DNA from: Candidatus Omnitrophica bacterium UBA6253
GTDB taxonomy: Bacteria; Omnitrophota; Gorgyraeia; Gygaellales; Profunditerraquicolaceae
Assembly (NCBI GenBank): GCA_002441245.1
Contig: DJVP01000011.1
Location: forward strand, 129,722-193,721
Length of the DNA: 64,000 nt
Reading direction: 5' to 3'
Shown here: one piece after another, positions 16,237 to 18,262 of the stretch
Layout: each line of letters begins with the position of its first letter
How positions within the stretch are numbered: position 1 is the stretch's first letter
Made by a program: the position numbers and the translations under genes
Notes under the pieces: generated by a model
What the model saw: only the letters and a program-made list of their open reading frames with translations
Databases searched by the model: none
Told to the model about the DNA's origin: nothing

Positions 16237-17259
16237 ATGCCAGAATTAAGAAAAGATCCGATTATAGGTAGATGGGTAATTATCGCCACTGAGCGCGCCC
16301 GGCGGCCTGACCAGTTTGCGGGCCATAAAGAACAGGATGATCAGGGCGCTTGCCCATTCTGTGAGGGCAAGGAATCCAATACTCCGCCTGAAATTTACGC
16401 TATGCGTCCGCGAAATTCTACGCGCAACGGGCCGGGTTGGGATTTACGGGTCGTCCCCAGTATTGCGCCTTTCTTAAGGGTTGAGGGTGATCTGGACCGG
16501 CGCGGAAACGGTATATATGACGTAATGAACGGTTTAGGCGCGCATGAGATTGTGATTGAAACCAACCAGCATGTTGCCAACATGGCGGATTTAAGCGAAG
16601 AGCAGATTGCCAATGTGCTCAATTGTTATTCCGATAGGATAATTGACCTGGAAAAGGATAGTCGGCTTAAATATGTTTTAGTATTTAAAAATTACGGTAA
16701 AGGTTCCGGCGGCGGCGGTATCAGGCATTCCCGCTCGCAGTTAATTGCTACTCCAGTTAATCCTAAACGCGTAAAAGAAGAGCTTGCCGGTGCGCGTAAA
16801 TATTATGAATATCATGAGCGGTGCGTGTTTTGCGATTTGATTAAGCAGGAGCTGGCACAGAAAGAACGCGTAATTGCTGAATTCGATGGTTTTGTAGCGG
16901 TAGCCCCGTTTGCCGCGCGATTTCCTTTTGAGACCTGGATTTTACCAAAAAAACATTGTTGCGATTATACCTGTATGGACACAGAGTCCAGGAGGCATTT
17001 GGCGCATGTACTTAAAAACGTGCTTTTGAAATTAAAAATCGGCTTAAACGACCCGGATTATAATTATATAATCCACACCGCGCCATTCCGCAGGCAAAAA
17101 ACAGGCTATTGGAAGACTATTGACCATGATTATCATTGGCATATCGAGATCATGCCGCGTTTGACTAAAGTAGCAGGTTTTGAATGGGGCACGGGTTTTT
17201 ATATCTGCCCGCTTCCGCCTGAAGATACAGCTAAGTTTTTAAGAGAGGTAGTAATTTAA
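16237..17259 (+). CDS. Galactose-1-phosphate uridylyltransferase-like (GalT/HIT-family nucleotidyltransferase), copy 1; canonical HPH nucleophile site reads H-S-R
   Basis: CPFCEG zinc knuckle and a two-half GalT architecture. The active-site region is IRHSRSQL instead of HPHxQ. Canonical TTGAAA-N16-TATAAT promoter ends 8 nt before the ATG. Confidence 0.75.
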   Translation: MPELRKDPIIGRWVIIATERARRPDQFAGHKEQDDQGACPFCEGKESNTPPEIYAMRPRNSTRNGPGWDLRVVPSIAPFLRVEGDLDRRGNGIYDVMNGLGAHEIVIETNQHVANMADLSEEQIANVLNCYSDRIIDLEKDSRLKYVLVFKNYGKGSGGGGIRHSRSQLIATPVNPKRVKEELAGARKYYEYHERCVFCDLIKQELAQKERVIAEFDGFVAVAPFAARFPFETWILPKKHCCDYTCMDTESRRHLAHVLKNVLLKLKIGLNDPDYNYIIHTAPFRRQKTGYWKTIDHDYHWHIEIMPRLTKVAGFEWGTGFYICPLPPEDTAKFLREVVI

Positions 17260-17260
17260 T

Positions 17261-18262
17261 ATGGCAGAATTAAGAAGAGATCCGGTTGTCGGCAGATGGG
17301 TAATTGTAGATACGGACCACCCGAACAAGCCGGAGGATTTTGAATACGAGCAATATATTCCCAATGGCGGGTTGTGCCCGTTTTGTTATGGCAATGAGTT
17401 TATGACTCCGCCCGAGATAAGCTGTTTTCGCGACCCCTCTACTGGGGCAAACACTCCAGGTTGGCAGGTACGCGTAGTGGCAAATAAATTTCCCGCCTTG
17501 CAGATCGAGGGAGAGCTTGACCGGAGAGGGATCGGTATTTATGATATGTCAAACGGGGTAGGCGCACATGAAGTTTTAATTGAAACCCCGTATCATAATA
17601 AGGATATACCTGAGCTCCTGCCGCAGGAGATTGAAAGTTACCTGAAGATGTGCTGTGTGCGGGCAGCGGATTTAAAAAAAGACAGCCGCTTTAAATATAT
17701 CATGCTCTTCCGTAATTATGGTTCTGCCGCCGGGGCATCCCTGGAGCATCCGCATACGCAACTGGTGGCACTTCCTATGGTCCCGAAGAACGCGCTGGAG
17801 GAGATCCATGGAGCGCGCGATTATTATAATTACCGGGAGCGCTGCATATATTGCGATATGATCCGCCAGGAGATCCAGGATAAGGCAAGATTGATCTTAG
17901 AGAATAAATATTTTATTTCTTTTTGCCCGTTTGTTTCGCGGTTCCCATTTGAGATCATGGTTATGCCTAAGCAGCATAGCGGTTATTTCTGCCATATATC
18001 AGGAGATGAGGTTGTTGCCTTGGCGCAGATCCTGAAGGATACTTTAGGAAAACTAAAAAAAGTATTTGAAAATTTATCATATAATTATATAATTCATTCT
18101 GCACCTATTAATGGTGAGGCTGACGTTGAGTATTACCATTGGCATCTTGAGATTATGCCTAAGCTGACGCAAGTTGCAGGTTTTGAGTGGGGGACTGGTT
18201 TTTACCTCGATCAAACCTCGCCTGAATTAGCCGCGCAATATCTAAAAGCCGTAAAAGAATAA
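17261..18262 (+). CDS. galT: Galactose-1-phosphate uridylyltransferase-like (GalT/HIT family), copy 2; canonical HPHTQ active site
   Basis: CPFCYG zinc knuckle, [11 protein letters not shown] active site, second-half HWHLEIMP motif. Starts 2 nt after copy 1. Confidence 0.8.

Follow-up and report, generated by a model that had tools for sequence, protein, structure and literature searches.

A conserved tandem pair of GalT-fold HIT proteins with complementary active-site losses, a candidate enzyme/pseudoenzyme heterodimer in Omnitrophota

[quoted passage not shown] Different elements of the active site have been lost from the two copies, and we propose that the proteins form a heterodimer in which c1 would be the non-catalytic partner of c2. 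The genes meet at ...ATT TAA T ATG..., with a single T between stop and start, and not the 2 nt given in a preliminary description of this DNA. A BLASTP alignment of the proteins spans 338 residues at 46% identity (E 3e-114). The Pfam models GalP_UDP_transf and GalP_UDP_tr_C match the N- and C-terminal parts, respectively, of both proteins above their cut-offs, both have the two-domain architecture of PF01087 and PF02744 half-barrels, and DUF4921 and DUF4931_N also match both. The CPFC knuckle lies at 16351-16362 in c1 and at 17375-17386 in c2; thus, the knuckle and two half-barrels that the preliminary description ascribed to both copies could be located in each.

[quoted passage not shown] E. 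coli and human GalT matched the pair at E values of 1e-12 to 1e-25, those of the E. coli enzyme being 1e-19 to 1e-25. An AlphaFold2 (AF2) monomer model of c1 had a predicted local distance difference test score (pLDDT) of 86 and a predicted template-modeling score (pTM) of 0.88, and a Foldseek comparison of this model with 2H39_A gave a template-modeling (TM) score of 0.91.

The two copies differ at the catalytic nucleophile. The c2 sequence reads EHPHTQ at 17744-17761, with the codon of the nucleophile, His165, at 17753-17755; c1 reads RHSRSQ at 16723-16740, with Arg166 encoded at 16732-16734. The preliminary description had made the same assignment, and four alignments agree with it: Arg166 stands opposite the nucleophile in the BLASTP alignment to c2, aligns by HMMER with His186 of At5g18200 (the residue replaced in PDB 2H39, a His186Gly mutant), lies in a column tied to His166 of E. 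coli GalT through HMMER alignment of c2, and occupies the nucleophile column of a 271-sequence MAFFT alignment. No substitute His is present in this c1 segment, where the sole His is the zinc ligand His164, and there is no His among the c1-specific conserved residues. We looked in the alignments for another c1 His at the nucleophile position, a possibility that the preliminary description had raised, and found none. The HxHxQ motif with a nucleotidyl-accepting second His is therefore present in c2 and absent from c1, making c1 a member of the fold but not a catalytic member of the class I GalT/ADP-glucose phosphorylase branch.

This difference is conserved to a degree well above what chance would give. 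Position 166 is Arg or Lys in all 120 closest c1 homologs (72-93% identity) and, among 69 c1 orthologs from genome loci, is Arg in 63, Lys in 1, Ile in 1, and His in 4; Arg166 is conserved at 98% in the c1 crown group, with Ile, Lys, or still His in the deeper lineages. His165 of c2 was found in 69/69 genome loci and 80/80 metagenome loci. Both copies keep their metal ligands: the first zinc site (Cys39, Cys42, His112, and His164, which is residue 163 in c2) is present in 69/69 orthologs of each copy, and the second site (Cys196/Cys199/His240/His300) in 69/69 c1 and 68/69 c2 orthologs. The zinc ligands of At5g18200, which we take to be Cys63/Cys66/His133/His184 and Cys216/Cys219/His255/His310, are consistent with our alignment.

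The preliminary description called for a survey of how the pair is arranged in other genomes. With c1 as the query, we found 80 species-level genome loci, 77 of them labeled, like the best homologs, Omnitrophota or mis-binned PVC (Planctomycetes–Verrucomicrobia–Chlamydiae) relatives, and complete c1-then-c2 pairs were present in 68 of the 80. Contig ends cut 8 of the other 12, c2 was split in 1 (L005), and 3 were true single-copy outgroups. The split c2 ortholog (L005 7001-7974) consists of two overlapping open reading frames (ORFs); this apparent frameshift would reflect either an assembly error or a pseudogene. In the reciprocal search of metagenome contigs with c2, c1 lay upstream in 77/80 loci and the remaining 3 had no room for it; among the 77 informative metagenome loci, none with room upstream of c2 lacked c1. 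Stop-to-start spacing was -1, 0, or +1 nt in 44/68 pairs, and a Shine-Dalgarno-like GAGAGG lies ~12 nt upstream of c2, within the 3' end of c1. Mean pairwise identity was 67.3% for c1 versus 62.6% for c2, and c1 was the more conserved copy in 90.6% of 2278 genome comparisons. Thus, c1 is under stronger constraint than c2 and evolves more slowly. Together, a paralog without catalytic residues, its strict co-occurrence with an active copy, and purifying selection are what is expected of a pseudoenzyme pair.

Two other accounts of the tandem arrangement were rejected. A decaying duplicate or pseudogene does not fit a c1 protein that is full length, has a confident predicted fold, and is the better conserved copy; a young duplicate confined to the genome under study does not fit the divergence of the copies or the phylum-wide presence of the pair. 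In a neighbor-joining tree, the c2 clade had 93% bootstrap support and the c1 clade 60%, and c1 and c2 were exclusive sisters in 0/100 replicates. From these sequences, we place the duplication no later than the base of the Omnitrophota sampled here and date it no more finely, because the outgroups in the tree were sampled by similarity to c1.

We compared the active-site elements of the two copies by reading motifs from alignment columns of 69 c1 orthologs, 69 c2 orthologs, and 120 His-bearing relatives (positions in Table 1). In a HMMER alignment, Arg20 and Arg23 of c1 correspond to Arg28 and Arg31 of E. coli GalT and to Arg48 and Arg51 of the human enzyme. These arginines are present in 68/69 and 64/69 c1 orthologs, respectively, with column entropies of 0.1 and 0.4 bits; among c2 orthologs, Arg20 occurs in 5/69, Arg23 in 0/69, and both together in 0/69, with entropies of 2.6 and 2.2 bits. 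The N-[KR]-[FY] motif of the nucleotide-binding loop was found in 0/69 c1 orthologs, 69/69 c2 orthologs, and 88/120 His-bearing relatives, and positions 76 and 77 of the c1 loop drift (1.5 and 2.2 bits). The Ser of the AGAS phosphate loop (Ser/Thr160 without an insertion) was found in 0/69 c1 and 69/69 c2 orthologs. The C-terminal loop of c1 was matched to residues 334-346 of human GALT by region and not residue by residue. Single-copy relatives carry the full set of elements in one chain. In four deep pairs in which c1 retains His166, the c1 loops and the c2 arginines are already gone, indicating that the change from His to Arg came late.

Structures of related enzymes give these losses a geometry. 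According to a 2026 preprint, At5g18200 and the class I GalTs are homodimeric, their active sites are located at the junction of the subunits, and dimerization is needed to complete the pocket (10.64898/2026.09.13.751320). In human GALT, Arg48 lies in the chain opposite Gln188, the glucose-1-phosphate (Glc-1-P) site is built from C-terminal residues 334-346 of one chain and Gln188/Asn173 of the other, and the loop of residues 48-63 is disordered in the crystal structure; the UDP-glucose contacts listed for E. coli GalT are Arg28, Arg31, Gly159, and Ser161 (PMC5081055). Because c1 alone keeps the partner-reaching Arg20 and Arg23, c2 most likely needs c1 to complete its active site. On this mapping, each loss falls in the other site, and most likely only a c1:c2 heterodimer would rebuild one complete site.

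We consider it probable that c1 and c2 form an obligate single-site enzyme/pseudoenzyme heterodimer, whose ancestor would have been a homodimer, a class I GalT-fold HIT enzyme resembling ADP-glucose phosphorylase. In this model, one chain would provide the cis elements (nucleotide loop, phosphate loop, and HxHxQ nucleophile), and the N-terminal arginine pair and C-terminal loop of the other chain would act in trans. The surviving site would contain Asn75-Lys-Phe, Ser160, His163, His165, and Gln167 of c2 together with Arg20, Arg23, and the C-terminal loop of c1, and would follow the usual ping-pong route with a nucleotidyl-His165 intermediate on c2; the mirror site, with c1 cis elements and c2 trans elements, would be catalytically dead. 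The AF2 model of c1 has low confidence only at residues 21-40 (the N-terminal arginine segment) and 313-320 (the C-terminal AGFEWGTG loop), the same two stretches to which our model gives a role in the partner's site; the equivalent loop of human GALT is the disordered one at residues 48-63. The preliminary description had predicted that c1 does not take part in the ping-pong mechanism or acts as a phosphorylase or regulatory partner. The missing nucleophile and the strict companionship with c2 support this, with the refinement that c1, which keeps Arg20 and Arg23, is probably not merely regulatory.

The C-terminal loop that c1 would lend has a peculiarity of its own. Asn is invariant in the family at one position of this loop (Asn334 in At5g18200), with 94% of relatives having it. 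In c1 (residue 324), 89% of orthologs have Cys instead, and the same column in c2 (residue 317) is variable, with Val, Asp, or Asn. The conserved Cys324 may alter specificity or redox sensitivity.

Natural fusions of c1 and c2 also exist. An exhaustive representative search returned 7729 family members, including a 599-residue fused protein (P0121), and a follow-up search brought the number of fusions to three with P0380 and P0381. Pairwise identity among them is no more than 52-56%, and they thus represent a lineage and not assembly artifacts; both of the fusions checked for context lie at the same locus and are followed by gap-pgk-tpiA-secG. The N module, derived from c1, keeps the segment MSELRKDP..RWV..VERAKRPNDF with Arg20 and Arg23, the second half-barrel, and the C-terminal loop (15 residues); its CPFC knuckle and nucleotide loop are deleted, and GAHE, His112, and HxHxQ are lost. 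The C module, derived from c2, lacks the first ~30 residues, corresponding to the arginine segment, and keeps CPFC, NKFPAL, GAHE, His112, and an 11-residue stretch. As judged from these sequences, the fusions retain exactly the complementary parts, the end point expected from the heterodimer model. AF2 modeling of P0121 gave a pTM of 0.79, with At5g18200 again the best fold match; this value adds little, because MAFFT placed all single-domain sequences on the C module and left the N module resting on a three-sequence alignment. A different double protein, P0153 (871 residues), has two complete GalT-like modules, both with HxHxQ (PHAHSQ and THPHSQ), behind an N-terminus of ~140 low-complexity residues.

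The alternative that c1 and c2 do not associate, with c2 an ordinary homodimeric enzyme and c1 a separate homodimeric non-catalytic sensor or scaffold that shares the operon, appears improbable to us. A c2 homodimer would lack Arg20 and Arg23 at both of its sites, and a c1 homodimer would conserve them to no catalytic end; the reciprocal adjacency is strict (77/77), with overlapping or 1-nt junctions, and three divergent fusions retain complementary parts. This alternative draws support from the invariant residues that c1 has for itself (Arg166, Arg178, Lys180, Arg286, and a GYW segment) and from partnerless relatives elsewhere in the family. The nucleophilic His is missing from 14 of the 150 best family representatives. 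In a Nitrospirota-type lineage, a GalT-like gene (X) occupies a conserved birA-coaX-X-Usp-JAB locus (L081 6001-7014; L091 5001-6020; P0129, P0351, P0338, and P0323), at which some proteins keep HxHxQ and others read SHP[VI]SY and also lack Arg20/Arg23 and the nucleotide loop. By sequence, catalytic residues were lost here a second time, independently and more completely. At another locus (L084 3374-6403), the gene for the nucleophile-less P0187 (SHPVSK) comes immediately after those for AIRC (LarB-like) and Ni_insertion (LarC-like) proteins, which hints at a further context for dead members of the family.

Several observations weigh against the obligate heterodimer. The nucleophile-less proteins of the Nitrospirota type stand alone, with no His-bearing neighbor; a partner is thus no universal requirement, and the heterodimer model is specific to the Omnitrophota pair. 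We infer the physical association, the substrate, and the cis/trans geometry. The geometry is carried over from the GalTs of human and E. coli, as is the trans role given to Arg20 and Arg23, these enzymes being ~20-25% identical and neither of them an ADP-glucose phosphorylase. Moreover, c1 keeps Asn152 in 69/69 orthologs, Gln168 in 68/69, and a strictly conserved Arg166. The c1 pocket thus looks like more than a drifting remnant and may carry out a separate function.

One such function, which we put forward tentatively and hold to be unlikely, would be non-catalytic binding of a hexose phosphate or phosphorylated glycolytic metabolite at the dead site (the c1 pocket plus the c2 C-terminal loop), which would tune the catalytic site. 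The idea arises because the nucleoside loop and nucleophile of c1 are lost, Asn152 and Gln168, which correspond to two same-chain Glc-1-P-binding residues of human GALT, are kept, and a basic cluster (Arg166, Arg/Lys163, Arg178, Lys180, and Arg286) has been gained. If the dead site does bind a metabolite, the heterodimer would connect ADP-glucose/glycogen to the glycolytic gap-pgk-tpiA operon as a valve gated by that metabolite. The c1 pocket is deleted from the fusions, indicating that the dead site is dispensable.

It is highly improbable, in our judgment, that c1 is itself an enzyme working by another mechanism, whether direct, non-covalent nucleotidyl or phosphoryl transfer in which Arg166 would stabilize the transition state or some other reaction of a phosphorylated sugar. 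It no longer has the nucleoside-binding loop, whose positions drift, the Ser of the phosphate loop is missing and a residue has been inserted there, deeper c1 lineages have Ile, Lys, or His at position 166, and the fused lineage dispenses with the whole pocket; we also know of no characterized GalT-branch enzyme that works without the His nucleophile. The crown-group conservation of Arg166, the retention of Asn152, Gln168, and both metal sites, and the slower evolution of c1 relative to c2 would fit such an activity.

Table 1. Features of the c1–c2 locus, in window coordinates.
Feature	Position	Strand	Basis and remarks
c1	16237-17259	+	340 residues; ORF, Pfam; GalT-fold HIT protein without nucleophile, proposed trans-acting non-catalytic subunit
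c2	17261-18262	+	333 residues; ORF, Pfam; proposed catalytic GalT-fold HIT subunit
c1 Arg20-Ala-Arg-Arg23	16294-16305	+	N-terminal arginine pair; HMMER alignment to E. coli GalT
c1 SIAPF	16459-16473	+	Degenerate counterpart of nucleotide-binding N-[KR]-[FY]-P-A loop
c1 SGGGG-I-RHSRSQ	16705-16740	+	Phosphate loop with Gly for Ser and one-residue insertion; His164 and Gln168 kept; Arg166
c1 C-terminal loop (18 residues)	17158-17211	+	Nearly invariant in c1; class I GalT counterpart contacts partner's site
c2 His20-Pro-Asn-Lys23	17318-17329	+	Replaces family Arg...Arg
c2 NKFPA	17483-17497	+	Intact nucleotide-binding loop; 69/69 c2 orthologs
c2 phosphate loop and HxHxQ motif (12 residues)	17726-17761	+	Intact
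Promoter-like site	16201-16228	+	TTGAAA-16 nt-TATAAT with TG (extended -10); ends 8 nt before c1 ATG; predicted
gap	18327-19379	+	ORF
pgk	19456-20649	+	ORF
tpiA	20646-21419	+	ORF
secG	21416-21826	+	ORF
Terminator-like hairpin	21876-21902	+	12-bp stem then T run, 3' of secG; strongest terminator-like site in scan
glgC (ADP-glucose pyrophosphorylase)	23884-25107	+	ORF; loose context only

The order fmt-c1-c2-gap-pgk-tpiA-secG is conserved in Omnitrophota loci, and gap, pgk, tpiA, and secG are probably co-transcribed with the pair. The promoter-like site upstream of c1 is the best consensus match in 15000-25500 (11/12), and no Shine-Dalgarno sequence is present between it and the c1 ATG. A TTG[ac]aa-N16/17-TGnTATAAT element keeps this distance to the ATG in 26/65 related loci (among L001-L045), with spacers that have otherwise diverged. 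This conserved promoter-like element, ending so close to the ATG without a Shine-Dalgarno sequence, suggests that the c1-c2-gap-pgk-tpiA-secG transcript has no leader or almost none, and the hairpin 3' of secG likely marks the end of the operon. The glgC gene lies 5.6 kb downstream of the pair, past the terminator, a major facilitator superfamily (MFS) gene, and a MarC-like gene, and belongs to another transcription unit. The preliminary description had placed the pair with gap-pgk-tpiA upstream of glgC; the order is as described and the linkage to gap-pgk-tpiA-secG is tight, but glgC is only a loose neighbor. Across the window, every 2-kb bin has a positive guanine–cytosine (GC) skew, and the + strand carries almost all long ORFs, a GGDEF gene (32580-33746) being the one clear exception; core housekeeping genes in the window include priA, fmt, SMC, recA, alaS, hisD, trpE, secDF, mfd, and rpoB.

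Neither galK nor galE was found in the window when ORFs of GalK or GalE size were checked, in agreement with the preliminary description, the ORFs of matching size being neither; galK, galE, and galM were likewise absent from the window and from the flanks of 80 related loci (flanks screened for the window's neighbor genes). Both proteins pass the TIGR00209 galT_1 cut-off of 102.1 bits marginally (106.6 bits for c1 and 122.5 for c2) and clearly fail the PRK11720 (NF008724) cut-off of 448 bits (120.6 and 132.7). Public annotations of the homologs are GalT. In c2 and its relatives, Lys replaces Asp78, a uridine-contacting residue of E. coli GalT.

Pointers to the substrate come from relatives. 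All seven single-copy His-bearing relatives examined (L077, L079, L080, L087, L088, L089, and L090) lie in alpha-glucan clusters with glgC, glgA, glycoside hydrolase family 57 (GH57), or carbohydrate-binding module family 48 (CBM48) genes. Two of these loci, one from Ratteibacteria, have the order glgC-X-glgA, where X is the GalT-like gene; in a Chlamydiota locus, X has glgC on its upstream side and a 741-residue ORF on its downstream side; GH57 enzymes, CBM48, and a nucleoside triphosphate (NTP)-transferase/phosphoglucomutase (PGM) fusion are encoded at a Margulisiibacteriota locus; a Syntrophomonadaceae locus has a glycosyltransferase family 5 (GT5) glycogen synthase directly downstream; and the two others have GH57 branching-enzyme and glucanotransferase genes. 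With the window's glgC as the query, glgC genes adjoining single-copy relatives were found, and other relatives are fused to a GT5 starch/glycogen synthase (P0164) or to GH57 (P0174 and P0196). The relatives in these alpha-glucan clusters and fusions carry the annotation 'galactose-1-phosphate uridylyltransferase'.

This glycogen-cluster and fusion context of the relatives suggests that the chemistry is probably that of ADP-glucose and Glc-1-P. The preliminary description suggested that the pair could serve nucleotide-sugar salvage or act like ADP-glucose phosphorylase, as opposed to Leloir galactose metabolism. The likeness to ADP-glucose phosphorylase is supported by the closeness of At5g18200 in sequence and fold, by the lack of galK and galE nearby, and by the glycogen context of the relatives. 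As the specific reaction we favor ADP-glucose + inorganic phosphate (Pi) <-> Glc-1-P + ADP, with moderate confidence of about even odds. The c1–c2 enzyme would then serve glycogen/ADP-glucose turnover and be co-expressed with gap-pgk-tpiA. Two points tell against this substrate: glgC is the only glycogen gene in the window and lies outside the operon of the pair, and the archaeal relative 6K5Z was deposited as a uridylyltransferase, which shows that belonging to the family does not by itself settle the substrate. That deposition, the TIGR00209 scores, and the public annotations are also what would favor the pair being a Leloir galactose-1-phosphate uridylyltransferase (UDP-glucose:galactose-1-phosphate). 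We find this quite improbable given scores far under the PRK11720 cut-off (121 and 133 bits versus 448), a much closer match to At5g18200 (E 1e-64 to 1e-69) than to E. coli GalT, the absence of galK/galE from the window, relatives that sit with or are fused to glgC, glgA, or GH57 genes, and the loss of Asp78.

Among known systems, At5g18200 ADP-glucose phosphorylase (1Z84 and 2H39) shares with the pair the two-half-barrel HIT fold, the HxHxQ region, and both aligned zinc sites, but it is a homodimer with two equivalent sites, whereas here paralogs divide the elements between them and c1, as known from its sequence, has no nucleophile. Class I GalTs (E. coli 1HXP/1GUP; human GALT 5IN3) have the same fold, a ping-pong mechanism through the second His of HxHxQ, and partner-completed sites; they differ in their low identity to the pair, their galK/galE Leloir context, and a second metal site of another type. 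6K5Z has a loop of the same N-[KR]-Y type but is a single gene product deposited under another activity. Catalytic/non-catalytic paralog pairs in which the inactive copy is an obligatory, conserved partner are known from GlgC/GlgD and from the small and large subunits of plant ADP-glucose pyrophosphorylase (AGPase). These pairs resemble c1–c2 in that one copy of a duplicated enzyme has lost catalysis yet is retained, in the same area of metabolism; unlike c1–c2, they are nucleotidyltransferases with a left-handed beta-helix whose partner is mainly regulatory, whereas c1 apparently lends active-site residues. Our literature searches found no description of a heterodimeric or pseudoenzyme-containing GalT/ADP-glucose phosphorylase and no paper linking this family to bacterial glycogen clusters. 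To our knowledge, what ADP-glucose phosphorylase does in vivo has yet to become clear, even for plants. The portions available to us of a 2024 Chem Rev review of prokaryotic alpha-glucan enzymes make no mention of such an enzyme.

The fold, the chemistry, and the route from homodimer to enzyme/pseudoenzyme heterodimer are thus already known, and their combination is new for the GalT/ADP-glucose phosphorylase family. If the model is correct, c1–c2 would be the first case in this branch of HIT enzymes of a homodimer turned into an obligate enzyme/pseudoenzyme heterodimer, with an unusually clean series of natural intermediates that would run from intact single-copy enzymes through tandem pairs with a c1 His and pairs with Arg to fusions without the dead site. 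A 'galactose-1-phosphate uridylyltransferase' gene of several bacterial phyla would be relabeled as a likely component of glycogen/ADP-glucose metabolism, and these bacterial operons would offer a tractable system for the role of ADP-glucose phosphorylase. Annotation pipelines would label both genes as GalT with full activity, and a Leloir pathway would be inferred from them in error when Omnitrophota metabolism is reconstructed.

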